DNA from: Candidatus Saccharimonadales bacterium | GTDB lineage: Bacteria; Patescibacteriota; Saccharimonadia; Saccharimonadales; JBBQYC01 | Assembly: GCA_038209015.1 (NCBI GenBank) | Contig: JBBQYC010000001.1 | Span: 18,974 to 82,973 of the forward strand | Direction: 5' to 3' | Length of the DNA: 64,000 bases | Position numbers and translations under genes: made by a program | Part shown: in pieces, positions 1 to 18,747 of the stretch | Layout of the letters: each line of letters starts with the position of its first letter | How positions within the stretch are numbered: the first letter of the stretch is position 1 | The notes under the pieces: model-generated | The model's input: only the letters and a program-made list of their open reading frames with translations | The model's database searches: none | What the model was told of the DNA's origin: nothing

Positions 1-1376
1 ACATACCCTGTCCAAGCATGTTAGTGAAAATTATAAGGAACTGACATATCTGATAAGAAAATGCTATAAAAATGGTCGCTAAAAATAAACGAGGAAACGC
101 TTTCTTAACTGTGTAGGCGCTTACAAACTCAAAACCAAGAGCTGTGCTGATAACCATGATAAGCATGACTGGGATGAGAATAATATACGCAAGGTTACGC
201 AAGCGACCCCAAGTGCCTGCTATGCCATCATTTGCAATGTAAGCATCCGGGGTGTTAAGGAGGTCGGATATTTTATTGTCTAAGAATACAAATGTACTGT
301 CCGCAAAACGTAGAAATGGACAAAGCAACCACGATAGGTCACTTGTTTCGCACGACTGTTGCTCACCCTCCCCGACCGCATTACTACTACCAGTAATTGC
401 CGCAGCTGTTGCCTCGGCAGATTCCGAATCGGCGCCTGCGACTGTTACTTCGACCGTCTGGTTTGAGCCATCCTTTTTAATATCAAACGTCCCAGTGTTA
501 GTGCCAAGGGCATCTATTTGGGCCTGCGTAGCCTGTATATATAAGTCGCCGGTACAATCCTCGCTGCGGAACTGGTTTCGGCTTTCGCACCATACGAATG
601 TTCGTGTGTCTTGTTCGCTCGTAGAAACGTGCTGGATGGCACCGTCGTCAGTAACGTTATAGGTAATATTAAAATTACTAAGACTACCCTGCTGTAGATC
701 TTTGTAGACCTTAACGCCTTTTAGACCGGCGCTAATACTATCAAAACATTCCCAAATCGGTCCCTTGTCATCATTGTTTTTGTTATGGAAAACAAAGTTT
801 CCATTCTGCGACGTACAGGTTACCTGTTCAACCTCATCCTCTTCGATACCCATAACCAGCTCTATATTTGCCAAAAGTCCTTGTAGGTCGCTAGCGGACA
901 CGGCTTTATCATTTCCGCCGAATGCGTCCCCCACCTTACTTCCAAGATCACCACTGAATTCATCTAATACGGATTCATCATTATCATCTCCATTGCTGTC
1001 CCCGCGCGCGTAGTTGAAGGTGTTATCGCCGGTGTTGCGGTCATAATATTTTCCGCCTATAGCATCCTGAAATTTAATATCGTCGATTATATACTGCTGA
1101 TTTGCCCCTGTTGGACTGGCACAGTCACCCGCACCAATATAGGTAATTTCAAATACTGCTCGGTTGATAATTTTAATTCGGAAGATACCGTCAGTTTCGT
1201 GATTGTCATTGCTACCAAGATCATTGGTTTGAATCACGCACAAATCATCGAGGTTTTCATCAGCATATACTGTTCTGGATTGTTCAGGTAATGGGATGGC
1301 AGAAAAAAGACTCACAAAAAGCGTGAATGTAAGAAACCACAGGGAGATCCCTGCTTTATTTATTTTGAAACCCATA
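1..1376 (-). CDS. large secreted/integral membrane protein, N-terminal 458 codons only (start ATG at 1376..1374, continues past window start); signal peptide, ~400-aa ectodomain, then multi-TM region; possible T4SS channel (VirB6/TrbL-like) component
   Basis: Hand translation of minus strand from ATG 1376 down to position 1 gives 458 sense codons without a stop (MGFKINKAGISLWFLTFTLFVSLFSAIPLPEQ...). It is absent from the ORF track only because no stop lies in the window. Hydrophobic helices sit at the window-proximal end (NLAYIILIPVMLIMVISTALGF; LFLATIFIAFSYQICQFLIIF). Confidence 0.7.
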
Positions 1377-1463
1377 AAATTATTCTAACATTACTAGTGA
1401 AGAAACTGCTAACGCTGGTCAAACATACATTTAATACCTATAATATGATATACCTTTATATAT

Positions 1464-2150
1464 ATGACTAAAAAACAAACATTATTTCTCGGCTTGACTC
1501 AACTAGTCCTACTAGCAGCTACTTTTTTGGTATTTTCTGCACCAAAAGTAAGTGCACAAACACCACCACAATGCCAGGGTGCGGGTTCAGCGGATGCAAT
1601 GGAAGCATGTTCGCGAAATGCTATTGAAGACGAGTGTGGAGAAGCCCCAAGTGCTGGGACGCCTATTCGGCAAGCTGAGGCTTATGAAGAGTGTAGGCGC
1701 AGTACTACTTCAGGTGATAGCGATAATGATGGTATCTCCGACGAAATTGAGGAAATATGTGGAACGCCCACGAATGACTCCCAGTCCCAAGGCTTCGATG
1801 CATGTCGACAACAAGTTGAAGCAGGTACCCACCCATCACAACAACAATCAACAGGAGGATCGAACGAAACTGTTCAAAGTACTGGCAGTCTAGACGGCGA
1901 CTGCAAGGATATTAATGACTGCAAGATAATCGGATATCTGCGTGACTTCATCAATCTCTTATCCGTAGTTGTAGGTATAGTCGTTGCGATAATGATAGTG
2001 GTGGGCGGTATTCAGTACAGCGCTTCACGGGATAATCCACAGGCAACGGCAGCGGCGAAACAACGGGTCACAAACGCTGTCATAGCACTTGTTGTCTACG
2101 TGTTTATATTCGCTATACTTGAATACTTGGTCCCTGGAGGTGTGTTCTAA
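1464..2150 (+). CDS. VirB2/TrbC-like pilin-type protein A: signal peptide, 10-Cys acidic ectodomain, C-terminal helix-loop-helix module
   Basis: N-terminal signal peptide (MTKKQTLFLGLTQLVLLAATFLVFSAPKVSA). C-terminal LLSVVVGIVVAIMIVVGGIQY-loop-VTNAVIALVVYVFIFAIL, shared with the five downstream paralogs. Confidence 0.6.
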   Translation: MTKKQTLFLGLTQLVLLAATFLVFSAPKVSAQTPPQCQGAGSADAMEACSRNAIEDECGEAPSAGTPIRQAEAYEECRRSTTSGDSDNDGISDEIEEICGTPTNDSQSQGFDACRQQVEAGTHPSQQQSTGGSNETVQSTGSLDGDCKDINDCKIIGYLRDFINLLSVVVGIVVAIMIVVGGIQYSASRDNPQATAAAKQRVTNAVIALVVYVFIFAILEYLVPGGVF

Positions 2151-2536
2151 TGCTACAGACTCTTACTCGATTTGCAGCCACCTGTCAGGATCTCGGCGGC
2201 AGCTTACCAGATAGAATATATGGTATCCCAACATGGTATAAGTATTTGCCATCGGAAGATGTTGCGGGTAAATGCTCACCTGTCATAGATTTGAGTGGCG
2301 ATGGTCAAGCGTCGGTGATTGCAATATTGTTAGCCGTATTCGATATACTGATATTTTTTGCAGGTCTCATTGCTGTAGGGTACGTTATATTCGGGGCTAT
2401 TCAGTTTATGGTGAGCCAGGGTGAGCCAGATAAAATCAAGAACGCTCGAAACACTGTTATGAATGCGCTCGTCGGACTTGTGCTTGTTCTGGTCTCAACC
2501 GTCGTCGTTAATCTAATAGGAAACACTCTTACATGA
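2150..2536 (+). CDS. VirB2/TrbC-like two-TM paralog B (no signal peptide)
   Basis: Overlaps the upstream stop (TAATG). Two hydrophobic helices separated by SQGEPDKIKNARNTV, the same loop motif as the paralogs. Confidence 0.55.
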   Translation: MLQTLTRFAATCQDLGGSLPDRIYGIPTWYKYLPSEDVAGKCSPVIDLSGDGQASVIAILLAVFDILIFFAGLIAVGYVIFGAIQFMVSQGEPDKIKNARNTVMNALVGLVLVLVSTVVVNLIGNTLT

Positions 2537-2820
2537 AATTTTTAGCGCAGTTTACAAAAGACGATTTCCCATCCATTCCAGACGCACCCGACCCAACCAA
2601 AGGCTTACCTCTAGCTGACGCTATGCAACTCATCTTTGGAATAATTGGAGTGATTGCAGTCGTGATGATAATGGTCGGCGGCTTTAAGTACATTGCATCA
2701 CAGGGTAATCCGCAAGAAACAGCCAAAGCAAAAAATACTATTTTGTACGCGGTCATAGGTCTTGTGCTCGCAGCCAGCGCATTTACCATTGTTTCGTTCA
2801 TAGTGGAGACAGCCAAATGA
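2533..2820 (+). CDS. VirB2/TrbC-like two-TM paralog C (short, no signal peptide)
   Basis: ATGA overlap with B. Contains IGVIAVVMIMVGGFKYIASQGNPQETAKAKNTILYAVIGLVLAASAF. Confidence 0.55.
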   Translation: MKFLAQFTKDDFPSIPDAPDPTKGLPLADAMQLIFGIIGVIAVVMIMVGGFKYIASQGNPQETAKAKNTILYAVIGLVLAASAFTIVSFIVETAK

Positions 2821-3230
2821 TTCGGTTAGCGCTAATGGCGACATTTATGGCATTATTTTGCGTGTTTCAGTTTGCGACTGTACCTGCTGCGGCAGAAGTG
2901 CTTGATCCTGCATGCGACATTACCACCACTGACGAGAACGGTAAGCAGATAAAGTCCCCTTTGTGTCCCGATGAAAACGAAACCATAGATGATAATTCCC
3001 TGTTCGGCCCAGGCGGTATAGCCACGCGACTCGTTAACCTGTTCTCATACATTATTGCTATTGCTGGCGTGATAGTAATCATCATCGGTGGATTCAAATA
3101 TGTTATATCGTCGGGCGACCAACAAAACATAAATAATGCCAAAAACACCATTTTGTACGCAGTCATAGGACTGGCAATAGCCGCTGTTGCCCAATTATTT
3201 GTCAGATTTGTGTTGTATAATATTAAGTAA
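2817..3230 (+). CDS. VirB2/TrbC-like pilin-type protein D (signal peptide + small Cys ectodomain)
   Basis: ATGA overlap with C. Signal peptide MIRLALMATFMALFCVFQFATVPAAA. Contains IAIAGVIVIIIGGFKYVISSGDQQNINNAKNTILYAVIGLAIAAVAQL. Confidence 0.6.
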   Translation: MIRLALMATFMALFCVFQFATVPAAAEVLDPACDITTTDENGKQIKSPLCPDENETIDDNSLFGPGGIATRLVNLFSYIIAIAGVIVIIIGGFKYVISSGDQQNINNAKNTILYAVIGLAIAAVAQLFVRFVLYNIK

Positions 3231-3250
3231 GCAATTAAAAGGATATCTAT

Positions 3251-3673
3251 ATGCAAAAAATAAAACAGTTTTTATCAACATCATTGAACGCGAGCCTAAT
3301 AGCTATGCTGCTTGCTTTTGGAGTTATCGCAATGGCAAGCGTGCCAGTAAATGCGCAAGCCGATGAAATATGTAAAGGTGTCGGTTACGTTGACAATGAC
3401 CCTAATAAAACCGAATGTGACGCAAGTGCGGACGGTACGGTTCGGAAAGTCGTCAAACTAGTCATAAATGTGTTTAGCTGGATAGTTGGAATTATCTCTG
3501 TCATCATGATTATCATCGGTGGACTTAAGTACATTACTTCGACTGGTGAAAGCAGCAATATTAATAGTGCCAAGAACACGATACTCTATGCCATCATCGG
3601 TTTAGTAGTGGTTGCCTTAGCTCAGATTATTGTTCTATTCGTTCTTGGTAGCGTGGACAGTCAGACTTCATAG
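3251..3673 (+). CDS. VirB2/TrbC-like pilin-type protein E
   Basis: Signal peptide ending VNAQA. Contains IISVIMIIIGGLKYITSTGESSNINSAKNTILYAIIGLVVVALAQI. Preceded by RBS-like aaagga. Confidence 0.6.
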   Translation: MQKIKQFLSTSLNASLIAMLLAFGVIAMASVPVNAQADEICKGVGYVDNDPNKTECDASADGTVRKVVKLVINVFSWIVGIISVIMIIIGGLKYITSTGESSNINSAKNTILYAIIGLVVVALAQIIVLFVLGSVDSQTS

Positions 3674-3745
3674 CGGATAGCTAAGAGTTGTCATCAGAGT
3701 TCTATCTGTGATATAACACCTATAAATCAATAAGAAAGGTTTTCA

Positions 3746-4162
3746 ATGTTAAAACGAATTAAATCAACGCTCACCAGCTTGTTGCTCAGTTCTATGTTCT
3801 TCCTACCAATGGCCGTACCAGCGACTGTTGCCGCCCAGGATCTCGTAGACTGTGAAGGAATTCAGGGCTGTTTAACTGAAGGTGCAGATAAAACTGGCGA
3901 TGCCACAGCTGACGAGGCTGGCACGCAGGTAAACAATATTGTGCGTTTAGTCATTAACACCTTTTCATGGGTTGTTGGAATCATCTCTGTCATCATGATT
4001 ATCATCGGTGGACTTAAGTACATTACCTCCGGTGGTGAAGGTAGCAATATCTCCGCAGCCAAAAACACGATACTCTACGCCATCATCGGTTTAGTCATTG
4101 TGGCACTTGCTCAGATTGTAGTTCAGTTCGTACTAAAGAACGTTACTGATTCCTCTGTCTAA
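3746..4162 (+). CDS. VirB2/TrbC-like pilin-type protein F (recent duplicate of E in the C-terminal half)
   Basis: Signal peptide ending TVAAQ. C-terminal module nearly identical to E at both protein and nucleotide level. Confidence 0.6.
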   Translation: MLKRIKSTLTSLLLSSMFFLPMAVPATVAAQDLVDCEGIQGCLTEGADKTGDATADEAGTQVNNIVRLVINTFSWVVGIISVIMIIIGGLKYITSGGEGSNISAAKNTILYAIIGLVIVALAQIVVQFVLKNVTDSSV

Positions 4163-4184
4163 CACTAGCTAGAAGATTCAAAAA

Positions 4185-4214
4185 GACTCCCTTTCCAGGG
4201 AGCCTTTTGTTTTA
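4185..4214 (+). terminator. rho-independent terminator after the pilin-like array
   Basis: CTCCC-TTTCCA-GGGAG hairpin (4187..4202) followed by CCTTTTGTTTT. Confidence 0.6.
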
Positions 4215-4218
4215 TATT

Positions 4219-4247
4219 AAAAACTCCTCGGTAGCGAGGAGTTTTTA
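4219..4247 (-). terminator. bidirectional rho-independent terminator (serves the minus-strand hsp20 gene)
   Basis: AAAAA-CTCCTCG-GTAG-CGAGGAG-TTTTT perfect hairpin flanked by A and T runs. Confidence 0.65.
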
Positions 4248-4265
4248 ATTACTAAGACTAGGGCC

Positions 4266-4778
4266 TTAGAGGACTTGGATTTTCTTTACCGTGTCTTGTT
4301 TGACCTTAGTGAAAGAAATAGTCAGCACACCGTCTTTAAGAACAGCTTCAATCTCTTCTTCTTTAACGGGAACTGGTAAGGCAATACTGCGGCTAAATTC
4401 ACCCCAGTAACATTCCTGAACAAAGTAATTCTCTACATTCTCATCGTTACCAGCGCTCAATGTACCACGGATACTAAGCGTATTGTCGGCAATACTTACA
4501 TCTAGATCCGCCTTGTTAACACCGGCTACCCTGCCCTTTACGACAAGTCGTTCTTTGGTTTCGTATACGTCTACGGCGAGCTGTCCTGGGACTGCTTCAT
4601 CTTCAGTCCAGTCATCTTCAGTAATTGGCGCACTCTGTGGCATAGCTGGTTGTTGTTGCCCTTGGTCTGTCGGCACGTCGAATTCTTCCTCACCTAGAAA
4701 CGCTGCTGTCAGCTCATCTTCCATCAATAAATCGTCGTCACGGCCTTTACGTGCCATTGTTGTTACCCTCCGCGTCAA
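4266..4778 (-). CDS. small heat-shock protein, Hsp20/alpha-crystallin family
   Basis: C-terminal alpha-crystallin-like domain (AVDVYETKERLVVKGRVAGVNKADLDVSIADNTLSIRG...GVLTISF). The probable true start is the internal MARKGRDD (~4757). Confidence 0.75.
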   Translation of the reverse strand: MTRRVTTMARKGRDDDLLMEDELTAAFLGEEEFDVPTDQGQQQPAMPQSAPITEDDWTEDEAVPGQLAVDVYETKERLVVKGRVAGVNKADLDVSIADNTLSIRGTLSAGNDENVENYFVQECYWGEFSRSIALPVPVKEEEIEAVLKDGVLTISFTKVKQDTVKKIQVL

Positions 4779-4934
4779 AAGACGTTAAAAACTAAGTATT
4801 TTTGGCTTTTTGTTAAATCTAGTATATCCGTGTATATCCAGAGGTGCAACAGCTAGGTCGTTTTATTACAACACAATAATCACAACATGCACTCCACTCA
4901 TGGTTAAATGAGGCAACAATTATAATATATACCA

Positions 4935-5603
4935 ATGCAATTACTCGATAGGATCTTATCGATAGTGGCACCGCTAGAGTGTATGGGGTGCTCGAGTGAG
5001 GAAGGCGTACTCTGCACAATGTGCTTGAATACCCTGCCTCTTGTTCCTAGCCGGTGCTATCGCTGCCAGGCTGCCACCAATAACTTTGAAGTCTGTGGAA
5101 GCTGCCGTAAATACACCAAGCTCGGACATGTCTGGGTTGCAACTGTATATGAAGGGCTTATTAAAGAAGTAATCCATGCCTACAAATATGAGCGAGTACT
5201 ATCGGCGCATAAACAGCTGAGTATGATGCTAGTTGATGCGCTGCCACTAGTCAGTGATATGATTGTGGTGTCTGTGCCAACCGCAACATCAAGGGTAAGA
5301 CAGCGAGGCTACGATCACACTTTGCTGATAGCCAAGGATGTAGCTTTCCAAAAAAACTTGATTAGGAAGCGACCGATGGTTCGGTTTTCTCAATCACGTC
5401 AGGTTGGATCAAGCAGAAAGGCACGTTTTGAACAGTTATCGAACAGTTTTTTTGTCACCCGCCCCCAGGATATTATCGGCAAAAAAGTACTAATTATTGA
5501 CGATGTCATAACAACGGGCGCAACCGTCGAAACCATTGCCGCTCTGTTGAAATCTACAGGAGCGAAAGAAGTGAATGCATTGGTTTGTTCTCAAAAACTC
5601 TGA
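4935..5603 (+). CDS. comF: ComF family protein (competence protein F-like phosphoribosyltransferase)
   Basis: N-terminal Cys4 cluster (CxxC...CxxC) and a C-terminal PRTase motif (VLIIDDVITTGATV). Confidence 0.7.
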   Translation: MQLLDRILSIVAPLECMGCSSEEGVLCTMCLNTLPLVPSRCYRCQAATNNFEVCGSCRKYTKLGHVWVATVYEGLIKEVIHAYKYERVLSAHKQLSMMLVDALPLVSDMIVVSVPTATSRVRQRGYDHTLLIAKDVAFQKNLIRKRPMVRFSQSRQVGSSRKARFEQLSNSFFVTRPQDIIGKKVLIIDDVITTGATVETIAALLKSTGAKEVNALVCSQKL

Positions 5604-5777
5604 TTTGTACCAAAGATAAAAGCTGATATAATCACCCCTGTTACAATTTACAGCTGTTTCAGGATTGCAATTAGCGATACGCTGACTGTAGTTTTGATAA
5701 AAGTGATCGGTGTGGGTATGCCTTTTTGTCGATAATATGTTTACCGACAGATAGTATACCCACCTACGCTTTACCTT

Positions 5778-5870
5778 GGAGAGGTACCCAAGTGGCTGAA
5801 GGGGCGGCTTTGCTAAAGCTGTAGGGGGGCGCAAGTCCCCGCGAGGGTTCGAATCCCTCTCTCTCCGCCA
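5778..5870 (+). tRNA. tRNA-Ser (anticodon GCT), long variable arm, CCA encoded
   Basis: GGAGAGG acceptor stem. Anticodon stem-loop CGGCT-TTGCTAA-AGCTG. Long extra arm. T-arm GAGGGTTCGAATCCCTC. Confidence 0.85.
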
Positions 5871-6024
5871 GGAAAGGAGTGGTCATGGGTAGTATGGCCC
5901 TTCTTTCCTAGAGAATTTTGAACACAAGGTTCGATAATCGAATGATATTTATACTGAAGTCAAAATTGCCAATTTTCTAAGATAAAACAGTTTTGGCTTG
6001 AAGTATTAGCCCTCTCTGCCGATG

Positions 6025-6378
6025 CTAGTCCATATTTATTCTATGTATTTCTTTCGGTATTACTGATCTACGATTAGCCAAACACATTTTTATGAGAAAT
6101 TCTTCGTCTTTCGGCTTATAAATATATAACCAGTCATACTCGTTGATAGCTGACTTCTTGATAACATACCCTTTTGAATTTGAATGAATTTTCCGTAGGT
6201 CTACTTCTTTGCCTCCAAAATACTTAACCTGCACCCGCCATAAACCCAATGAGTCATCAACGATAAGATCATAGGCTGCAGATTCCGTAAGGGGTAGCGA
6301 AATATCGAAACCCATTTTAGTAAATGTAGCAATAGCTTGTGTTACGGCTATATCCCCTTTTCGTTGAGTCGGTCTCAT
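6025..6378 (-). CDS. small PD-(D/E)XK-like nuclease-fold hypothetical protein
   Basis: Motif AYDLIVDD...LWRVQVKY fits the D-x(n)-(E/Q)-x-K nuclease core. Sits between two tRNA-Ser genes. Confidence 0.4.
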   Translation of the reverse strand: MRPTQRKGDIAVTQAIATFTKMGFDISLPLTESAAYDLIVDDSLGLWRVQVKYFGGKEVDLRKIHSNSKGYVIKKSAINEYDWLYIYKPKDEEFLIKMCLANRRSVIPKEIHRINMD

Positions 6379-6444
6379 AGGTAAATAGTAACATTAAACG
6401 GTTTAGTATACCGTTGATTTTTTATGATATAATTTTACGCTATT

Positions 6445-6534
6445 GGAGAGATGACCGAGTGGTTGAAGGTACTTGTCTTGAAAACAAGCGTGCCCGCAAG
6501 GGTACCGTGGGTTCGAATCCCACTCTCTCCGCCA
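6445..6534 (+). tRNA. tRNA-Ser (anticodon TGA), CCA encoded
   Basis: GGAGAGA acceptor. Anticodon stem-loop CTTGT-CTTGAAA-ACAAG. Long variable arm. T-arm GTGGGTTCGAATCCCAC. Confidence 0.85.
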
Positions 6535-6543
6535 AGAAGAAAA

Positions 6544-6565
6544 ACTCACTCCAGTGAGTTTTTTA
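6544..6565 (+). terminator. rho-independent terminator after tRNA-Ser(TGA)
   Basis: ACTCACT-CC-AGTGAGT hairpin followed by TTTTTT. Confidence 0.6.
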
Positions 6566-6614
6566 ATTTCGTTACTTATGCATCGTAGGGGTTTTGTAGT
6601 CAACTTGGTACAAT

Positions 6615-6932
6615 ATGCTTATGTCCAGTAGTGAGCTCTCTGCAATGTTCTGTTATGTATATCTCCTTCGATCTGAGATGAGCAATAATTGGTATGTCGG
6701 TTTTACTAACGATTTACGCAAAAGATTAACAGAACACAACAATGGCTTGAATCGTTCAATAGCCCATGGTAAACCGTGGGTATTTGAATACTACGAGGCG
6801 CATCGGAATGAGACTGATGCACGAAGGCGAGAGAATTATCTTAAAACCAGCGCTGGTCATCAGACACTACGTAGAACGTTACGCGAACAACTAAGCCGCC
6901 GCGATTCAAGCCGGCAGAAAGTCTACTACTAG
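6615..6932 (+). CDS. GIY-YIG nuclease family protein (UPF0213-like)
   Basis: YVYLLRSEMSNNWYVGFTNDLRKRLTEHN matches the GIY-YIG core (Y..Y..G...NL..R...H). The probable start is the internal ATG (MFCYVYLL, ~6645). Confidence 0.7.
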   Translation: MLMSSSELSAMFCYVYLLRSEMSNNWYVGFTNDLRKRLTEHNNGLNRSIAHGKPWVFEYYEAHRNETDARRRENYLKTSAGHQTLRRTLREQLSRRDSSRQKVYY

Positions 6933-6934
6933 GT

Positions 6935-7555
6935 ATGCAACCAGGGGAAACAATCACACCGGGACAGACAACTGAACCATCTGGCGAAACCGAACAGAAG
7001 TTTCGCTACAGTGCAGAACCTGCTAACCCGCAACCATCCCCTACTCCAGTGCCTCCTACACAAAGCCCAGCACAACCAGAAGCGATATATGAACAAGCTA
7101 CTTTAGCCGAGTGGAGTGCTTCAGAATATATAGATCATCATAAATCCATAGAATGGTACGCGGTTCTAGTCTTAGCTTCGGTATTACTAGGCGGGTTGCT
7201 GTATCTTGTAACGCGTGACTGGATAAGCGTCGTCGTGGTTCTGCTAGCTGCTGGCATGTTCGGAATCAGTGGCGCCAAAAAGCCACGAACTCTCACATAT
7301 AGGATTACGGAGAGTGGCGTCCAGGTAGCGGGAAAACTGTATCCATATGAAGATATAAAAGTGTTCTCTGTGGTTAATGAGGGTGGTGTTAGCTCAATTC
7401 AACTCCTACCTCTCCGTAGATTTATGCCACCACTAAGTATTTACTATCCACCAGATATGGAAGAGCCTATATTTAATGCTTTAGCTAACTATCTCCCACA
7501 CGAAGAGAATAAACATGACCCCGTAGACCGTCTCATGAAGCGTTTGCGATTCTAG
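6935..7555 (+). CDS. hypothetical membrane protein, Pro-rich N-terminus, two TM helices
   Basis: ORF with PTPVPPTQSPAQP low-complexity and TM segments (WYAVLVLASVLLGGLLYLV; SVVVVLLAAGMFGI). Confidence 0.5.
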   Translation: MQPGETITPGQTTEPSGETEQKFRYSAEPANPQPSPTPVPPTQSPAQPEAIYEQATLAEWSASEYIDHHKSIEWYAVLVLASVLLGGLLYLVTRDWISVVVVLLAAGMFGISGAKKPRTLTYRITESGVQVAGKLYPYEDIKVFSVVNEGGVSSIQLLPLRRFMPPLSIYYPPDMEEPIFNALANYLPHEENKHDPVDRLMKRLRF

Positions 7556-7558
7556 TAG

Positions 7559-7996
7559 TTATTTCTTTTTTGGAAGTTTGAGCAATGTACGGAACGAGTT
7601 ACTTTTGAGTCTATTACCGTAATCATTCGCGCCCTTCGTTCCTGGTGCGACCAGTAAGTACACAGCGGCCAAGAAGTTAATAATAGGTACAACCGCAAAA
7701 ATAATGAGCCACCATGGCTGGTTTAGGTCGTGAAGCCTGCGCACAATTGTGCTGGTTTCTATAATTACCGCGATGAGCTGAAACATCCCTAACAGCAAAA
7801 GTCCAGCCCCGACTACCACCAGTTGATACAGGACTGAATCGGTACCATATTTTTCGAGGTATGTTCCTAGAACAATTGCCGGAGCCACTACGACTAACAC
7901 GATTGCCGCTAGGATGAGCGAAAAATATATCGACGTTAGAAGGAATTGTATGCGTGACAACCGCCCCTGGAAAAGAGATGTTATGTATTCAATCAT
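7559..7996 (-). CDS. DUF805-family inner membrane protein
   Basis: GRLSRIQF N-terminal motif and RRLHDLNQPWW motif typical of DUF805 (YhaH-like). Multiple TM helices. Confidence 0.65.
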   Translation of the reverse strand: MIEYITSLFQGRLSRIQFLLTSIYFSLILAAIVLVVVAPAIVLGTYLEKYGTDSVLYQLVVVGAGLLLLGMFQLIAVIIETSTIVRRLHDLNQPWWLIIFAVVPIINFLAAVYLLVAPGTKGANDYGNRLKSNSFRTLLKLPKKK

Positions 7997-8083
7997 TTAT
8001 TCAATAGTAGCACGACAAAATAAAAAGCCATCTTTCGACAGCTTTTGAATACATTTGGTACAGCATTATATACGAAGTTAGAA

Positions 8084-8320
8084 CTATTTTGGCTCTTGAA
8101 TGTCGCCTTCTAGAATGTATGTAGTTTCTACCTGGGCTTGTCGCATAAAAGGCTTTTCAGCTTGTGGCAGTACGGTCTCTAGTAGCTGTCTAGCAGCACT
8201 CAATTTTCTCGCAACTTCTATAACTTGGTCGGGTGGAGTATCAATAGGAACTCTAAGAGGGTCTCTACCGACTTCTTGAACCACATTTAGACCTTCTCTT
8301 GATTTCCTGAACATACTCAC
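8084..8320 (-). CDS. hypothetical protein (78 aa)
   Basis: ORF only. Located 45 nt downstream (minus sense) of repeat copy 1. Confidence 0.35.
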   Translation of the reverse strand: MSMFRKSREGLNVVQEVGRDPLRVPIDTPPDQVIEVARKLSAARQLLETVLPQAEKPFMRQAQVETTYILEGDIQEPK

Positions 8321-8367
8321 AGTTTAGCACTAAGCATCCAATCAAATGCGAACAAAACACCAAACAA

Positions 8368-8460
8368 GATTCAAACTCGTTTCAAGATGATAAAAAACAG
8401 CTAACAAAAAAGAGATTGAAACTGACTTCAATCTCTATCTGTAATTTCACTCTGGTACAC
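8368..8460. repeat. ~93-bp direct repeat copy 1; contains a minus-strand rho-independent terminator hairpin and an 8-10-nt fragment identical to the tRNA-Arg 3' end
   Basis: gattcaaactcgtttcaa...acaaaaaagagattgaa-actgac-ttcaatctctatctgtaatttcactctggtacac aligns to 9269..9360. The 3' 50 nt are nearly identical. GAGATTGAA/TTCAATCTC is a perfect 9-bp inverted repeat followed (minus sense) by TTTTTT. Confidence 0.8.
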
Positions 8461-8511
8461 GGTAATAAAGGAAGTTCAAACTGCTATAAACAGCTTGGTA
8501 GTTGCCTGAAA

Positions 8512-9216
8512 TTATTTTTTAGCTTTATGCCTTATATCATTCTTTGTTTCTTTTTGGGTAACTGCATCAGCAAGATTAACATTCAACCTATTGGCTAAAT
8601 GCACGAGGTATAGTTGCACATCTGCAAGCTCGTCTAATACAGAAACGTTTTCATAGCCTTCATCACGATTAAGCCCTTCGTTTTTACGAATTGCACGTGC
8701 TAACTCACCAATCTCCTCTGTAAGAAGCAACATTGTGTCTCTTGCGGATTCTTCTGCCCAGCCCCTACGTTTAGATATTCTTGCATAGTAGCTTTGCAGA
8801 CCATTTATTCCGTGTCCTGGTTTGTGAACTCTTTCCTGTACATCAGTGGGGCTTTTAACAACTTCTGTAATCATTTTTTCTATCAAAGGGTCAACAGGCT
8901 TTTCATCTGTATAAACGGGTATGCCAAGGGAGTGAGCATTGCCGATTTCAAAAGCCGCACTTAAGCCGACGTAACCAGAAGGAGCAAACAGCCACACGAA
9001 ATCTGCGTCACGCATTGCAGCAAGCAGCCGTTCTTCAATGGTGACAATATCATCATCTAGCTCGTGCTGTGCTCTCACAAAGTCTGCTTTTGGCTCAGTA
9101 AAATCTATGCTCTTAGGGCAAAGAATATCAAAATCAACAGACAAGCTTTCGTATAGCCGCCTAAGCTTCTCTTGTTCCTTTCGGAAGGTACCTATTAAAA
9201 CGACGCTTTTTCGCAT
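8512..9216 (-). CDS. fusion protein: N-terminal nucleoside 2-deoxyribosyltransferase-like (Rossmann-like) domain + C-terminal MazG-like nucleotide pyrophosphohydrolase domain
   Basis: N-terminal half FVWLFAPSGYVGLSAAFEIGNAHSLGIPVY (deoxyribosyltransferase-like). C-terminal half LLLTEEIGELARAIRK...DELADVQLYLVHLANRLNVNLADAV (MazG/NTP-PPase helices with EExxE/D motifs). Confidence 0.6.
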   Translation of the reverse strand: MRKSVVLIGTFRKEQEKLRRLYESLSVDFDILCPKSIDFTEPKADFVRAQHELDDDIVTIEERLLAAMRDADFVWLFAPSGYVGLSAAFEIGNAHSLGIPVYTDEKPVDPLIEKMITEVVKSPTDVQERVHKPGHGINGLQSYYARISKRRGWAEESARDTMLLLTEEIGELARAIRKNEGLNRDEGYENVSVLDELADVQLYLVHLANRLNVNLADAVTQKETKNDIRHKAKK

Positions 9217-9268
9217 AGTTCTATAGTAGCAGTTCAGCCATGACCCTCATGCACTCAGACACCAGGCA

Positions 9269-9360
9269 GGATTCAAACTCATTTCAAAGTGTTAATCTCT
9301 GACCAACAAAAAAGAGATTGAATAGGGCTTCAATCTCTATCTATAATTTCACTCTGGTAC
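9269..9360. repeat. ~92-bp direct repeat copy 2; overlaps the 3' terminal 6 nt of tRNA-Arg and contains its downstream terminator hairpin
   Basis: See copy 1. GAGATTGAA-TAGGGC-TTCAATCTC hairpin at 9314..9337 with a T-run on the minus strand. Confidence 0.8.
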
Positions 9361-9431
9361 ACCCGGCAGGATTTGAACCTACGACCTTCTGTACCGCAAA
9401 CAGACGCTCTATCCAGCTGAGCTACGGGTGC
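9355..9431 (-). tRNA. tRNA-Arg (anticodon GCG by my folding; CCA encoded)
   Basis: The reverse complement GCACCCGTAGCTCAGCTGGATAGAGCGTCTGTTTGCGGTACAGAAGGTCGTAGGTTCAAATCCTGCCGGGTGTACCA folds as a 77-nt cloverleaf. Acceptor GCACCCG/CGGGTGT. Anticodon loop TTGCGGT. Confidence 0.8.
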
Positions 9432-9929
9432 GCGTCAGAGTGAGGCTTTTGACTCGCTCTGACGCGCCAAGCACGCAGAGTCTCATCTTGTAGCTCTCCC
9501 TCCTCCTTTCTAGTTTTTTTAAACAGCCGAGCCCGCAAAGCCGACTCCTTGGTTTAAAAAAACTGATTCAGGGCAGTTAGACTGCCAGAAACAGGGGTGA
9601 TTGTAGCATATGGCTGAGTATAGTGCCAGAGGCAGCGTAAAACTGTTGGTTTTGTGTCTCAGTCACCATTAATAACCATAATAGTGTTAGATTGATTATA
9701 GAACTTATAAAAAATATAGGGTATCGTGCTAATTGAAGGGAGACTTCGGGTTATGGTACACAAAAAATTTATTCCGCGTTATTACGTGCGAGATAGCGAA
9801 ACGCAAGAACTGTGGTGTTTTACTGCGCCAGCCATCGCTGGGAAATAACGGAAGTTATAATTATTGGCTTTTGATGGTTCAGTACTTTGTGCTGAACTCG
9901 GTTTGGTCTGCTGCTACTATGTATTGCAT

Positions 9930-10023
9930 GGAAGAGTGGCCGAGCCCGGTTGAAGGCGCACGACTCGAAATCGTGTAAGTACGGCAACGTGCTTCGAGGG
10001 TTCGAATCCCTCCTCTTCCGCCA
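9930..10023 (+). tRNA. tRNA-Ser (anticodon CGA), CCA encoded
   Basis: GGAAGAG acceptor. Anticodon stem-loop CACGA-CTCGAAA-TCGTG. Long variable arm. T-arm GAGGGTTCGAATCCCTC. Confidence 0.85.
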
Positions 10024-10024
10024 G

Positions 10025-11029
10025 TTACTTTGGGTTCACCTGCGGTCTGATAATATTCTGTCTGTTTCGTGTCAGTCTGAGCACAATGAATAATAAAATC
10101 GCAATGAGTATTACAGCGCCACTATAAATGAGCGTTCGCTGTACCGCTAAATCAATTGCCTGAAAGACAATGTTATTGAGTATGTTGGCAAAGGAGCCAT
10201 CTTTGAACTGGGCTTTGAGGTTAGGTGATAGGGCCGGAAGAAGTTTACCGAATACAAGAGCCGATATTGCTAAAAACAACCCTGTTGAAAGGAGCGATTT
10301 TGCAACTCGGTCTAGACCAATACGCTTTGATTTTGCCAAAAATACTATAGCAATTGATGAGATAACTGCCAAAACTGCCATGGTTAGAGGGAGTGTTTGT
10401 AGCCTTTGAAAGCTATCTGAGATTCTATCCAAATCTTGTTGTTGCACATCCCCGATATCATCAAATGTAATAGTGGTATCAGGCAGAAAACCATCACTTG
10501 CAAGCAGTTCTCGCTCTATCTTCTGTGCTTCAGCATCCAGATTGATACCGGGGGGTTGGCAGTCAAGTTCAAACGGATCTGTTGTAGTAGGCAGCGAGGA
10601 GCACATTGGCAGGCCTTGGACACGCTGCTTTGCGTACTGGCTGACCCCTTTCGCAATTTCTCGCTTTTCATCTGCCAGGTTCAGAACATAATCCGGTTTG
10701 GGGACTTCCCCATTCAGCCACCTATACGTTCCATCTGAAATATCCTTGAATAATTCTTTTAAACGTTCCGGAGGAAACGTATCATTGGCGAGCTTCCGAA
10801 TCTTGGGGTCGTTCACGGGTACGGTATTTTCCGAGTCGTCCAGCTTGGCGGATTCATCGAGTATGCGGTTGATTATCGAATCATATGCGCCGCTATTTTC
10901 AACAAACGATTGGGTGGTCGAAGGTGAGCCTATGAGTGCAACGAGTACTGCAGCTGTAATTGCCAGCAGCACGGATACCCTTAGGGTTATCCGGCTTATC
11001 CAATAGAGAGCGTTTTGCCACCAATGCAT
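10025..11029 (-). CDS. hypothetical integral membrane protein (N-terminal TM, extracytoplasmic middle region, C-terminal TM bundle)
   Basis: Long ORF with hydrophobic helices (VSVLLAITAAVLVALIG; LTMAVLAVISSIAIVFL; AVILIAILLFIVLRL). No recognised domain. Confidence 0.55.
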   Translation of the reverse strand: MHWWQNALYWISRITLRVSVLLAITAAVLVALIGSPSTTQSFVENSGAYDSIINRILDESAKLDDSENTVPVNDPKIRKLANDTFPPERLKELFKDISDGTYRWLNGEVPKPDYVLNLADEKREIAKGVSQYAKQRVQGLPMCSSLPTTTDPFELDCQPPGINLDAEAQKIERELLASDGFLPDTTITFDDIGDVQQQDLDRISDSFQRLQTLPLTMAVLAVISSIAIVFLAKSKRIGLDRVAKSLLSTGLFLAISALVFGKLLPALSPNLKAQFKDGSFANILNNIVFQAIDLAVQRTLIYSGAVILIAILLFIVLRLTRNRQNIIRPQVNPK

Positions 11030-11045
11030 GAGGGTATTGTATCAG

Positions 11046-12635
11046 TTAGTCACTGTTATGTGCGTTCAGTAGAGACGGCAGGTAGTGGTTTCGCCGTCCA
11101 ACCGTCACCGAAGCATCTGGATGAACAGTGAGAATCTGATATCCAAGCAGGTCGTGCGTTTGTTTATGGACGCTCAGTAGCACCATAGATGCATCGTCGT
11201 AAAGCGGACCAAACGTTGGCATATCACCACCTGCTCCACCGGAGCTAGCGCCGACTATTAGCAGACCTGCAGTATTAGTAGACGAAGTAATGTCTTCAAC
11301 TTGGTGTTTATGCATATGCCCAGACAATGCTACCTTGGCGCATCCGCGTTGTAGTGCGGTGTAGGCAGCATCGTGATCGTGAACTAAAAGGAAATCAACC
11401 GGCTCTGGTTGTGCGCAAGCTTCATGTGCCAGACGTTCGCCAATATCTACAACAGATTCTTCGCCAACTTGACGGATATTTACTCCAAACTGACTACGAC
11501 GTGGATCGCTATCACCGAGTATCGTTATTCCTTGTAGGGTGGTAGGCTGGCCGGTGAGCACGGAGAATCCTGCGCGGCTCATCTGCGGTCCTGTCACTGC
11601 TAGGTCATCATGGTTACCTAGGCTGGTCGCTTTATCGATTCCCTCAAGCGCTTTTCCTAGCGGCCCAATACACAACTCTTCATATTCCGTACCACTTGCG
11701 GTTACATCCCCACCATCCAATGCAAAGTCTATGGACTGTTGTTCTGCTACGGTTTCGATGACTCTACTCATCCCCGTATTACAGTGATAATCCGTTATAA
11801 ATAAGCCCGTTACTGATCTGTTTGTCGGCTGGAATGTCGGATGATCCTCAAGAGCTGCCTGCATATTGACGGCGGCTTGCTTATAAAATTGATCGTTACT
11901 GTTGATGTAGTCGAGTACTTCTACACCGGCTGTATTGACGGCCAGCTGCATCCACCTCCCTTTCACGAGCGCTCCTTCGAGCGGCGTATTCTCAAATAGT
12001 TCACTCACAGGTATGAACCCATCAGGTAGCTGTATTTCATGTGAAGCAGTTGGCATCTGTATTCCCAGCAAGCTAACGACGGCAGCGGCGGGAGCTAGTT
12101 TTCTCACTGCCGGCATTACGCGGGTTTCATACACTTGCCTTCGCGCATCACGACCCACAAATGTATACAGGGCAACGGTACCAGCCATAGCTATGAGTCC
12201 ATTGCGCGCTGCTTGCTTCCCTGTCTCTTTCGCAGTGTTCTGTAGATCGTCTTCTATGGTGGTGAGCATACGGGCATAGGATTGGAGTTCTTCAGGGCTG
12301 AGTTCAGATGGGTCAGAACCCAGTGATACATCAGCTGGCATTTCTTTGATGGTTATATGTGCCCCTACCCCGAACATATTTTTTTGAGGGAAGGCTATGG
12401 CGCCTGGCATACCCACGTCAAATGTCGCCAAACTATCGTACGAGACAGTGGTTACCGCTCGGTGACCACCTATGGTTGTTTCTGTGCCGATATGCTCTGC
12501 TGACAGTAGCGCCGACCCAACGCCGATGCCAAGAAGTGCTGCACTTTTTGCGATCTTAGGTAGAAGCCGCCGTTCCGGGGCGAATTGTAGTGTGTGTTGC
12601 GGCGCGACCGCTACCTCGGGGTTCGCCATATCCAT
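11046..12635 (-). CDS. membrane-associated calcineurin-like metallophosphoesterase
   Basis: Metallophosphoesterase motifs (LFITDYHCN; GGD; GNHD; GHMH). N-terminal hydrophobic segments. Confidence 0.65.
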   Translation of the reverse strand: MDMANPEVAVAPQHTLQFAPERRLLPKIAKSAALLGIGVGSALLSAEHIGTETTIGGHRAVTTVSYDSLATFDVGMPGAIAFPQKNMFGVGAHITIKEMPADVSLGSDPSELSPEELQSYARMLTTIEDDLQNTAKETGKQAARNGLIAMAGTVALYTFVGRDARRQVYETRVMPAVRKLAPAAAVVSLLGIQMPTASHEIQLPDGFIPVSELFENTPLEGALVKGRWMQLAVNTAGVEVLDYINSNDQFYKQAAVNMQAALEDHPTFQPTNRSVTGLFITDYHCNTGMSRVIETVAEQQSIDFALDGGDVTASGTEYEELCIGPLGKALEGIDKATSLGNHDDLAVTGPQMSRAGFSVLTGQPTTLQGITILGDSDPRRSQFGVNIRQVGEESVVDIGERLAHEACAQPEPVDFLLVHDHDAAYTALQRGCAKVALSGHMHKHQVEDITSSTNTAGLLIVGASSGGAGGDMPTFGPLYDDASMVLLSVHKQTHDLLGYQILTVHPDASVTVGRRNHYLPSLLNAHNSD

Positions 12636-14496: not shown

Positions 14497-17043
14497 TCAT
14501 ACGAACTGTGTTTGTGTGTGCTGTAGGGTTTTTAATGCTTCTTTAGTATCAGTTAGTTGCTGTTTCGTCTCATCTACGAGACTCTTCGGTGCATTTGCTA
14601 CATATGATGTATTCGACAACCGTTTTTCAAGATTTTTGATGTGCTGCTGGGCGGTATCTATCTGCGCTTGCAGCTTGTTTCGGTATGCTTGGATGGTTTT
14701 ATCGTCTAAATCCAGCCATGCTTCTGCAGATGTAAGCCTAATACCGCCACTAATTTCACCGCGCTCTACGCTGTTAAGACGCCCTAGCGATGCAATCAGA
14801 TGCTCATGAGCCGCTATCACTGGACTGCTGCTGAATACCAATCTTGATTTACTCACCCCAAGACTGGATTGGATGAAACGGATCTCACTAACCACGTCTT
14901 TTACTGCCTCAAACTGGTCAGCTTCATCGGCGTACGAATCTTCTAAGGCTCGCGGCCACGCACTCGTAATCAGTAAGTTTTCATCTTCCCATCTTAGGGT
15001 TTGCCAGATAGTTTCAGTGACGAATGGGACTAATGGATGCGCGAGCTTTAGAATTGTCTCAAGTGCATAGGCTAGCACGCTAGGGTTAGGCTGAACTTTG
15101 CTGGCTTCGATATACCAGTCTGCCAAATCATCCCAAACTAAATGGTAGATATATTCTGCGGCTTCAGAAAATCGATAGGTTTCGTACAAACGCGCCATAT
15201 CGGTCACAGATAGTTGTAATTTACGCAACATCCAGGCATCTGCATCTGTATGCACGGTTGGGTTGGAACGCAAATGGTACTCATCACCAATCTTATCTTC
15301 TATATAGCGTGCAATATTCCACAGTTTGTTGCAGAAGTTGCGTGCATCCTCTACCTTACGGGGGTCATAGCCTCTGTTTACAGCTGGAGCTCTGCCGGTA
15401 GTGAGTCCAAGCCGCAGCGCATCTGAACCGTACGCGTCTATTACTTCTATAGGGTTAATAACGTTGCCCTTGCTCTTACTCATTTTAGAGCCGTCTTCGG
15501 CCATGACGTAGCCATGAATATACACTTCCTTAAATGGAATGTCCCCTGTTACGTAGAGTCCGAGCATTATCATTCTTGATACCCATGGGTAGAGAATCTC
15601 GCCACCGGTTTCCATCAGGCTGTTTGGGTAGAAATCTTTGAATAGGTCGCCATCAGGATAGTTCATTGTTGCATATGGCCAACTGCTGCTGCTAAACCAG
15701 GTATCAAATACATCTGGATCTCGGCGGTATGTTTTTCCGTCAATTTCAATCAACTCTTGATCTATCGTGTCGTTATACATCCATTCATCTTCATCATCTA
15801 TGTTTTGGAACGCCGGGATTGGGATACCCCAGATGATTTGTCGACTAATATTCCAATCGCGCAGATTTTCGAGGTAGGTTATCAGCTGGGTTCGCTTGCT
15901 ATCTGGATAAAATGTAATTTGTTTCTGTTCGAGCGCCTTAATTGCCGGCTTCGCTAGAGGTTGCATATCAACAAACCATTGCTTCATAAGCATCGGTTCT
16001 ATAACTGTTTTACAGCGGTAGCATTTACCAACACGGTTTTTGTATTTTTTATCAATTTTAATGAGTAAACCTTTTGCTTCTAGTGCATCAGCTACCGCTT
16101 GGCGTGCTTCGAGCACGGGCATATCGCGGAAACGCCCTGCCCTCTCGTTCATAGTCCCGTCATGGTTAATAACGCGAACAGCAGGTAAATTATGACGCTG
16201 CGCGACCTCCCAGTCATTCGGATCATGGGCAGGAGTTATCTTTACGACCCCTGTTCCAAAGTCTCTGTCTACCATTTCATCAGCAATTACGTCGACTTCA
16301 AACGGGCCTTCCACGCCCTCTATAGTCAGGCGCTGGCCAACATATTTCTGATAACGAGTATCATCTGGGTGCACAGCTACAGCCGTATCACCGAACTTTG
16401 TTTCTGGTCGGGTAGTAGCTAGCTCAAAAGGTCCGTACTTTATGTAGTACAACGGCGTCACGGCATCCTCATATTCAACCTCAACATCAGCAAAGCCTGT
16501 GCGATGGAAGGTACAGTAATTTACCAGCCTTTCACCTCTGTAAATGAGTCCTTCATCCCACATTTTTTTAAATGTAGCGTGGGCCTGTTTGGTGACTTTC
16601 GGATCGAGCGTGTAGGTATAACTCTGCCAGTCCACGCTGGCTCCAAGACGTCGGTATTGGGATTCATACACCCCCTTATTCTCTGCTACAAATTCCCATA
16701 TCTGCTTGTATAAATCGTTGCGCTTAAAATCGAACCGGCTCTTCCCTTCCTTGTTCAGGTGTTTTTCATACACGTCTTGTGTTTCAAACCCCGCATGATC
16801 TGAACCGGGCAGCCATAGCGTTTTATCACCTTTCATACGGTGATAACGGATGGCGGTATCCTGAAGTGCAAACATAAGGCTGTGTCCGACATGTAAGTTC
16901 CCGTTTGCATTCGGGGGTGGCAGCACTATAGAGTAGGTTTCACCTGTTCCCCGATCTTTTGGCGTAAATGCGCCACTCTTTTCCCAGAGAGAGTAGATAT
17001 CAGATTCGTAGGCGTGCGGATCATACGTTTTGGGTAAATTCAT
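14497..17043 (-). CDS. valS: valine--tRNA ligase
   Basis: Class I HIGH (PPPNANGNLHVGHS) and KMSKS (KMSKSKGN) motifs. 848 aa with a C-terminal coiled coil. Confidence 0.9.
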   Translation of the reverse strand: MNLPKTYDPHAYESDIYSLWEKSGAFTPKDRGTGETYSIVLPPPNANGNLHVGHSLMFALQDTAIRYHRMKGDKTLWLPGSDHAGFETQDVYEKHLNKEGKSRFDFKRNDLYKQIWEFVAENKGVYESQYRRLGASVDWQSYTYTLDPKVTKQAHATFKKMWDEGLIYRGERLVNYCTFHRTGFADVEVEYEDAVTPLYYIKYGPFELATTRPETKFGDTAVAVHPDDTRYQKYVGQRLTIEGVEGPFEVDVIADEMVDRDFGTGVVKITPAHDPNDWEVAQRHNLPAVRVINHDGTMNERAGRFRDMPVLEARQAVADALEAKGLLIKIDKKYKNRVGKCYRCKTVIEPMLMKQWFVDMQPLAKPAIKALEQKQITFYPDSKRTQLITYLENLRDWNISRQIIWGIPIPAFQNIDDEDEWMYNDTIDQELIEIDGKTYRRDPDVFDTWFSSSSWPYATMNYPDGDLFKDFYPNSLMETGGEILYPWVSRMIMLGLYVTGDIPFKEVYIHGYVMAEDGSKMSKSKGNVINPIEVIDAYGSDALRLGLTTGRAPAVNRGYDPRKVEDARNFCNKLWNIARYIEDKIGDEYHLRSNPTVHTDADAWMLRKLQLSVTDMARLYETYRFSEAAEYIYHLVWDDLADWYIEASKVQPNPSVLAYALETILKLAHPLVPFVTETIWQTLRWEDENLLITSAWPRALEDSYADEADQFEAVKDVVSEIRFIQSSLGVSKSRLVFSSSPVIAAHEHLIASLGRLNSVERGEISGGIRLTSAEAWLDLDDKTIQAYRNKLQAQIDTAQQHIKNLEKRLSNTSYVANAPKSLVDETKQQLTDTKEALKTLQHTQTQFV

Positions 17044-17331
17044 CGTGTTAGAAACCCCTTCCAGTTAAGTTCAAAGTGTTAAGTATATCTGTTTCTAATT
17101 TGGGGTAATTTCTAACTTGATTCATCCCACCACTATAACAAGCAGCTAACAGAAATGCCACCCCTGTTAATTTTCATGTGAAAAGTTAGCAATAAGAACC
17201 AAAGGTTTTCACGTGAAACCTTATGTGCTTACTTCCAACCGTTTTCCTACGTGCAATTCTGATGGTCTTCAGAACAATACCGTTTTTATTTTCATAAGCA
17301 GTATACCAGATGAATTAACAGGGAAGCAATA

Positions 17332-17360
17332 TTGACCTAGTCACTAAAAACTGCTATAAT
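17332..17360 (+). promoter_or_regulatory. near-consensus sigma-70 promoter TTGACC-17-TATAAT (extended TGcTATAAT)
   Basis: TTGACC 17332..17337, 17-nt spacer, TATAAT 17355..17360. The 97-aa ORF begins at 17368. Confidence 0.55.
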
Positions 17361-17367
17361 CAGTCTA

Positions 17368-17661
17368 ATGAAATCGTATGAAGCCGGACAACCGGAACTA
17401 GTTATAATTGCTGAAATGACCGGTGAAGAATTATGTGCACCTTCTGGTATTTATGACCCAAATCTCGACAAAGATCTTACTAATTTTTCTGCAATCGAGC
17501 TCATAGAGCAAGCACAGGGCAGTCAAGGGGTGTGCTTAAATAGTAATGGGTATTTGTCTCCAGAGGCGGCGGCTTACAATTCTCAGCTCCACCGGAATAG
17601 GGAGCTAACCGTTGAGCGAATGCTATTTGCGGTTATCTCAAAGCGTCCACCAAAACAATAG
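17368..17661 (+). CDS. hypothetical protein (97 aa)
   Basis: ORF directly downstream of a consensus promoter. No SD and no recognisable domain. Confidence 0.4.
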   Translation: MKSYEAGQPELVIIAEMTGEELCAPSGIYDPNLDKDLTNFSAIELIEQAQGSQGVCLNSNGYLSPEAAAYNSQLHRNRELTVERMLFAVISKRPPKQ

Positions 17662-18723: not shown

Positions 18724-18747
18724 TACAAACCAAGTATACTGAGGGCA

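Follow-up and report, generated by a model that had tools for sequence, protein, structure and literature searches.

Which protein faces the pilin array at the left edge of this Candidatus Saccharimonadales sequence, and is it the membrane subunit of a type IV secretion system (T4SS)? The stretch of DNA analysed here, called the window throughout, comprises 64,000 nucleotides (positions 18,974 to 82,973 of contig JBBQYC010000001.1, assembly GCA_038209015.1), and its first 1,375 bases carry on the minus strand an open reading frame (ORF) that diverges from six pilin genes. Our analysis identifies this ORF, with good confidence, as the 'extended VirB6' subunit of the chromosomal, MPF-FATA-related T4SS of Saccharibacteria (MPF, mating-pair formation). 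The gene is an unannotated addition to a T4SS locus that is already known as universal in Saccharibacteria. One more VirB6-like gene matters little alone; of its features, only the variable ectodomain deserves to be pursued.

The minus-strand frame starts at the ATG at 1375-1373 and runs for 458 codons to base 2, the edge of the window. A preliminary description of this DNA, made from the letters and a list of ORFs, had reported a frame of more than 458 codons from an ATG at 1376. The open run to the edge was correct, and no stop appeared on re-checking, but the start was placed one base off: the reverse-complement frame that begins at base 1376 contains many stops. As also described, only two short plus-strand ORFs are listed for positions 1-1376; these (252-662 and 765-1013) lie antisense within the VirB6-like ORF, which is itself missing from the list only because it runs off the window. 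An exhaustive HMMER search retrieved a database protein of 1,006 amino acids (aa), P0060, to which all 458 window residues (100 %) are identical, and the window ORF is the N-terminal 46 % (458 of 1,006 codons) of that protein. Given this full match and the 49 cluster representatives of the ectodomain that were found at E <= 1e-10, the ORF is far beyond chance. The gene and its parts are the following (AF2, AlphaFold2; pLDDT, predicted local distance difference test).

2..1375, minus strand: 5' part of the gene for a VirB6-like T4SS membrane protein, which leaves the left window edge (open frame and identity with P0060)
1262..1375, minus strand: probable Sec signal peptide, aa 1-38 (hydropathy, conservation of A38 and A/V36, AF2 helix 4-26)
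353..1261, minus strand: acidic, beta-rich, subfamily-specific ectodomain, aa 39-341 (AF2 pLDDT, Cys conservation, 56 cluster representatives)
194..352, minus strand: C-x9-C motif (SCE..W..CP) and long juxtamembrane helix, aa 342-394 (Cys invariance, AF2 helices)
137..193, minus strand: core transmembrane helix 1, aa 395-413 (hydropathy 2.58)
26..85, minus strand: core transmembrane helix 2, aa 431-450 (hydropathy 1.98, loop charges)

The genomic setting of this gene was compared at 75 loci from species-representative genomes, nearly all of them metagenome-assembled genomes of Saccharibacteria/Saccharimonadales. Loci with homologues of the conserved C-terminal part follow one order: Hsp20, five or six pilins, the divergent VirB6-like gene, PrgI, a TraC-like ORF, a VirB4-type ATPase, a VanY protein of ~1,000 aa and a lysozyme. 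A divergent pilin-like array of 4-8 ORFs, most often six, was present at every locus with enough upstream sequence (53/53), with Hsp20 upstream at 52 of these 53. Where enough downstream sequence was available, PrgI-like and VirB4-like genes followed on the same strand at 48 of 49 loci. The three closest loci (L006-L008) have the ectodomain in common; the orthologues at L006 and L008 measure 1,012 and 1,002 aa, respectively, and are followed by PrgI, an ORF of ~300 aa, VirB4 and VanY. From these orthologous loci we infer that the T4SS locus extends past the window edge, in line with the preliminary description, which had also correctly placed a divergent pilin-like operon 88 bp away. The spacer between the VirB6-like ATG and the first pilin ATG at 1464 covers 1376-1463, and the features on this side of the gene are listed here.

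1376..1463, no strand: 88-bp spacer from which the VirB6-like gene and the pilin operon diverge
1464..4162, plus strand: six VirB2-type pilin genes at 1464-2150, 2150-2536, 2533-2820, 2817-3230, 3251-3673 and 3746-4162 (PF18895 T4SS_pilin, all above the gathering score)
4266..4778, minus strand: Hsp20 gene, conserved flank (PF00011, 6.7e-18), corresponding to SEML1_0020
4935..5603, plus strand: gene with a ComF-like phosphoribosyltransferase domain, conserved flank (PF00156), in the same order as SEML1_0021 (K02242)
5778-5870: tRNA-Ser, after the ComF-like gene, in the same order as the SEML1_0022 tRNA

A conserved region of this kind has been described for TM7x and other Saccharibacteria, with VirB4, VirB6, VirB2 and four to six small secreted proteins (McLean et al. 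2020, PMC7427843). In Candidatus Southlakia epibionticum ML1, transposon sequencing (Tn-seq) found the T4SS cluster SEML1_0006-0019, including the pilin array, to be essential for epibiotic growth (Wang et al. 2023, Cell, PMC10633639). Within this cluster, SEML1_0013 is a minus-strand gene of 3,267 bp with TrbL/VirB6 as its best structural match and the Tn-seq calls NE/ES/ES; it is followed by six plus-strand pilins, Hsp20 (minus), a K02242 ComF-type gene (plus) and a tRNA (PMC10633639). The gene order of window positions 1-5870 equals that of SEML1_0013-0022 gene for gene. Like the window gene, SEML1_0013 lies on the minus strand, has ~1,000 codons, diverges from six pilins and has the same Hsp20/ComF/tRNA flank. 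Its structure-based annotation is TrbL/VirB6-like with a helical (ARM-like) C-terminal region. It differs in length (1,088 aa against 1,006 aa for the window protein), and the two are taken as orthologous by position and architecture only. Between SEML1_0013 and PrgI, Southlakia also encodes an additional large polytopic protein, SEML1_0011, together with an NTF2/VirB8-like gene, whereas zero or one small ORF separates the VirB6-like gene from PrgI at L006 and L008, the loci closest to the window. Cultivated strains apparently have two large VirB6-like or polytopic proteins (SEML1_0011 and SEML1_0013; TM7x_00055 and TM7x_00060) compared with one in L006/L008, so that the VirB6-like copy number varies between lineages.

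In the Patescibacteria as a whole, 480 VirB6 homologues, mostly near virB4, and 441 pilin arrays have been reported, those of Saccharimonadia included, and most of the T4SS clusters are without a relaxase (Quinonero-Coronel et al. 2025, PMC12102498). Among monoderm T4SSs, the Saccharibacteria T4SS is exceptional for its VirB2-like pilins (2025 review, PMC12857230), and their pairing with a monoderm-type machine is unusual. The Pam pilus, described in a preprint, is a different, chaperone-usher-like pilus and was set aside as not relevant.

In a complete homologue, the membrane core of the family has a predicted VirB6-type fold. P0002, a complete family member with a short ectodomain, was modelled with AF2 from a 53-sequence alignment and reached a pLDDT of 80-97 in the membrane core. 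In a Foldseek search of this model against the PDB, ranks 1-6, 8 and 9 were TrwJ/TrwI stalk-entry chains of the R388 system, at E 3e-3 to 0.35 and a probability of 0.66-1.00, and the five best aligned over 283-298 columns. Rank 7 went to Legionella DotA, with noise below. Chain 7o3v_F was checked to be TrwI; TrwJ, at 226 aa, is too short to account for the chains with 260-272 modelled residues. As a positive control, TrwI itself matches the Pfam family TrbL/VirB6 PF04610 at 5e-50. At the profile level, the 53-sequence family alignment A5 was compared by hhalign with ten annotated MPF-T VirB6 proteins from plasmids (including R388 TrwI, NC_028464), and the comparison gave a probability of 61 % (P 8e-5), which is below the usual 90 % level; reversed-sequence controls gave 0.6-1.6 % (P 0.03-0.09). 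The best score of the family against VirB6 in hmmsearch --max was 20 bits. Every profile comparison paired the most conserved motif of the family, APLAILAWIFPGNDKLW, with GPLFILALIWQPTHRFF of TrwI.

Several results weigh against the VirB6 assignment. The structural match is of modest quality (E ~3e-3; TM-score 0.35-0.44, referred to the target; root-mean-square deviation ~11 A) and comes from the short-ectodomain homologue, while only two core helices lie within the window. The search with VirB6/TrbL hidden Markov models that the preliminary description had proposed gave no curated Pfam or NCBIfam match: even with the threshold relaxed to E <= 10, the window protein, P0060, eight homologues and three membrane domains in isolation had no VirB6-family hit in scans of Pfam, NCBIfam and PADLOC. 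Precomputed Pfam tags for PF19590 TrbL_3 do speak for VirB6 and are attached to about half of the family members (among them P0002, P0004 and P0007; L001-L005), some at E <= 1e-5, but hmmscan of Pfam-A at E <= 10 did not reproduce them, either with full proteins or with the membrane domains alone. When PDB sequences were searched with a profile, only noise came back (ribosomal S23, PACSIN). Furthermore, the downstream T4SS genes of the window are known from the orthologous loci alone, simply counting the hydrophobic peaks yields six passes and would put the C-terminal tail outside, the five-pass topology preferred below rests on hydropathy and the positive-inside rule, and all functional roles are drawn by analogy. 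Taken together with the synteny, the modest fold and profile scores nevertheless clearly favour a VirB6-type subunit over the other readings. The suggestion of a VirB6/TrbL-type polytopic protein with a large extracytoplasmic extension is thus borne out by TrwI/VirB6 as best fold match, by the locus and by the annotation of SEML1_0013.

With regard to the missing PF19590 hits, our guess is that the HMMER bias filter acts on hydrophobic sequences; the discrepancy may affect other hydrophobic families as well. The one line that the scans did return for the protein, NCBIfam 'halo_surf_dom', scored 17.6 bits where the cut-off is 40, and was dismissed as noise.

The N-terminus of the protein is basic (K4 and K7). 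A hydrophobic stretch (aa 9-27) comes next, and then an AxA-type motif, V-Y-A, at aa 36-38, in which A38 is conserved in 49 and A/V36 in 47 of 50 subfamily members. The AF2 model has a helix at 4-26 and then a disordered linker. Residues 1-38 are therefore probably a Sec signal peptide with an SPase I-like site and predicted cleavage before D39. The preliminary description had claimed a signal peptide and had also announced an Asp/Gly-rich, Cys-containing ectodomain of ~400 aa. Its composition agrees with this (Asp 11.2 %, Gly 9.3 %, Asn 7.9 %; eight Cys; net charge -38), but the extracytoplasmic region is shorter, ~365 aa (aa 28-394). The eight conserved Cys of this region make four pairs, one of which, C342 and C352 of the C-x9-C motif, is invariant in 50/50 subfamily members and nearly so in the whole family. 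AF2-modelled helices at 348-373 and 383-413 lead from here into the membrane core. Of the successive hydrophobic helices expected after the ectodomain, two fall within the window, at aa 395-413 and 431-450. At the first of them lies the most strongly conserved stretch of the family (RN.AY..L.P.ML.MV..TALGF), and the loop before the second (YTVKKAFPR) is basic and predicted to be cytoplasmic.

The full-length P0060 shows how the protein would continue, with hydrophobic segments at aa 395-413, 431-450, 502-549, 566-584 and 598-616 and a basic, Cys-free C-terminal tail of ~390 aa with 55 Lys/Arg. Classical VirB6 proteins have the N-terminus outside, five membrane passes and the C-terminus inside. 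Hydropathy gives five or six segments for P0060, and the positive-inside pattern, the distribution of Cys and the basic Cys-free tail favour the classical arrangement, which would fit provided that aa 502-549 form one long helix. In the AF2 model of P0002, a single 50-residue helix stands where this segment falls.

TrwI/VirB6 of R388 (PDB 7O3V, 8RT9, 8RTD) is the best structural match of the family core and carries the conserved motif in the same helix; it also resembles the family in its linkage to VirB2, VirB3 and VirB4 homologues, and the N-out/C-in polytopic topology predicted for the family would agree with it. However, TrwI has 342 aa, without a large ectodomain or tail, and the sequence similarity is below detection by curated hidden Markov models. 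The R388 system is diderm and includes VirB5, VirB7-10, a relaxase and a coupling protein, whereas the Saccharibacteria system is monoderm-type and chromosomal. 'Extended VirB6' proteins combine a VirB6-type hydrophobic core with large hydrophilic domains (PMC12857230), as the window protein does. Their added domains are central or C-proximal (PMC12857230), while the window protein has a long C-terminal tail and, in addition, an N-terminal extracytoplasmic domain before the first core helix.

The exhaustive HMMER search with the ectodomain retrieved 56 cluster representatives, the 49 mentioned above among them; a word-indexed search with the ectodomain alone gave no match. In nearly all of these relatives, the protein is ~1,000 aa long and the domain occupies aa 30-340. 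The AF2 model of the window ectodomain has a pLDDT > 90 for aa 40-330, and C46, C85, C187, C210, C263 and C274 are conserved in 44-50 of 50 subfamily members, a pattern that would fit an extracytoplasmic disulfide-bonded domain. Library scans of Pfam and NCBIfam returned no match for the ectodomain, and a Foldseek search against the PDB no fold match. Within the subfamily, the median identity of the ectodomain (31 %) is about that of the start of the core (33 %), which suggests that the ectodomain has been kept as a functional domain. In the family as a whole, the 57 complete ORFs from species-level loci are 945 aa long at the median, with ~300 residues (median) ahead of the first core helix, and BLASTP sorts 56 of their ectodomains into 32 groups that show no similarity to one another. 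The ectodomain type of the window is common only to L006-L008 among the species-level loci. Some members, P0002 and P0004 among them, have only ~40-70 residues before C-x9-C and an unchanged locus, which is why the conserved core is presumably the essential part. In published accounts of these T4SSs, we found no description of a modular, swapped N-terminal head on a VirB6 core.

A large, folded, acidic and Cys-paired ectodomain that is swapped throughout the family, in parallel with divergent pilin arrays (PMC12102498), would also be expected of a protein that is mainly a surface adhesin or host-recognition protein. In that case the VirB6-like core would be an anchor, and the essential role would be attachment rather than that of a channel or pilus platform. 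We consider this unlikely given that members with a short N-terminus keep the same locus, and such a role would add to the VirB6 explanation more than compete with it.

A second alternative is a channel protein of the PrgH/TcpH type, that is, the Gram-positive MPF-FATA counterpart with the same function in the monoderm-conjugation lineage. The neighbours are indeed monoderm-type (PrgI, a TraC-like protein, a VirB4 with a P-loop_TraG domain, VanY and lysozyme hydrolases), and the VirB4 clade of Patescibacteria is sister to MPF-FATA (PMC12102498). However, the PrgH profile retrieved only 12 of the 480 Patescibacteria VirB6 homologues and the MPF-T VirB6 profile the rest (PMC12102498). The best fold and profile matches of the family are likewise to MPF-T TrwI/VirB6, so we regard a PrgH/TcpH-type protein as improbable. 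To our knowledge, neither PrgH nor TcpH has a solved structure.

The gene might also encode a permease of the ABC-2 or a similar transporter type, or some different polytopic protein merely located beside T4SS genes. SEML1_0013 and SEML1_0011 do carry KEGG K01992, the ABC-2 permease label, and 'ABC transporter permease' stands in one annotation line with a value of 0.575 (PMC10633639). This reading was rejected as very improbable: no adjacent ABC ATPase gene occurs in any locus examined, the linkage to pilins, PrgI and VirB4 is near-universal, no transporter is among the top fold matches and there is no ABC-2 Pfam match.

For a VirB6-type subunit, the R388 system offers a working model. In the R388 structure, a VirB6 pentamer is the membrane base of the stalk, and VirB6 meets VirB5 at the outer face. 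By analogy, the core of the window protein would oligomerise in the cytoplasmic membrane as a platform or channel, on which the neighbouring pilins would be polymerised after their extraction from the membrane. The basic tail would be cytoplasmic and could dock the VirB4 ATPase. The ectodomain would be located at the outer face, where VirB6 of R388 meets VirB5, and may act as a stalk, tip or host-contact element. Apart from rare Gram-negative-type clusters, we found no VirB5 reported in the literature for the Saccharibacteria-type system. We hypothesize here, tentatively and with low confidence, that the ectodomain is an undescribed, folded, disulfide-stabilised module, one of many unrelated, lineage-specific heads on the same conserved VirB6 core, which could serve as a host-contact or VirB5-substitute (stalk or tip) element that co-diversifies with the pilin arrays and sets the host range. 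Since lineages keep the VirB6 core but exchange the N-terminal ectodomain, this domain, which in the subfamily of the window is well folded and without a PDB fold match, is a concrete candidate for the host-facing part of the T4SS.

Some further observations concern the VirB6-like gene and the pilins next to it. A near-perfect palindrome, GCAGGGATCTCCCTGT, is located at 1339-1354, in codons 8-12 of the VirB6-like ORF and ~20 nt downstream of its start codon. It is terminator-like on both strands (2 sites vs 0.3 expected in shuffled sequences) and may have arisen by chance or act as a regulatory hairpin or operator. The 88-bp spacer contains one sigma-70-like site on the plus strand (1416-1444), which is no excess over shuffled sequence. 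At four of the 75 loci (L006 8731-9837, L008 8815-9900, L007 and L052), an extra ORF of 361-368 aa lies between the pilins and the VirB6-like gene; it has one hydrophobic segment and no Pfam match, and is absent from the spacer of the window. The first pilin (1464-2150, plus strand) is unusually long, with 228 aa and the PF18895 core at aa 159-222. Its N-terminal extension of ~130 aa is Cys-rich and acidic and includes a weak Excalibur-like stretch and a TSP3-type Ca-binding-like motif, DSDNDGISDE (PF18884 at E 3e-4, below the cut-off).

The window is chromosomal and contains the housekeeping genes for ValRS, TsaD, a Mur ligase and GroEL as well as tRNAs. The cumulative GC skew has its minimum at window positions ~16000-19000, and gene orientation switches at ~18.7 kb: ValRS and TsaD are encoded on the minus strand, the Mur ligase and the genes after it on the plus strand. 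The region at ~16000-19000 looks like a strand switch of the replication-origin type, ~15 kb from the pilin array. No DnaA was present among the window ORFs scanned; in some Patescibacteria, T4SS loci are located near dnaA (PMC12102498). Two adjacent minus-strand ORFs, 10025-11029 (334 aa) and 11046-12635 (529 aa), lie between tRNA-Ser and an HTH-HAD fusion gene and have no Pfam match at E <= 1e-5. Four tRNA genes (Ser-GCT, Ser-TGA, Arg-GCG and Ser-CGA) are clustered within ~4 kb (5778-10023) among small ORFs, directly beyond the flank of the T4SS locus.

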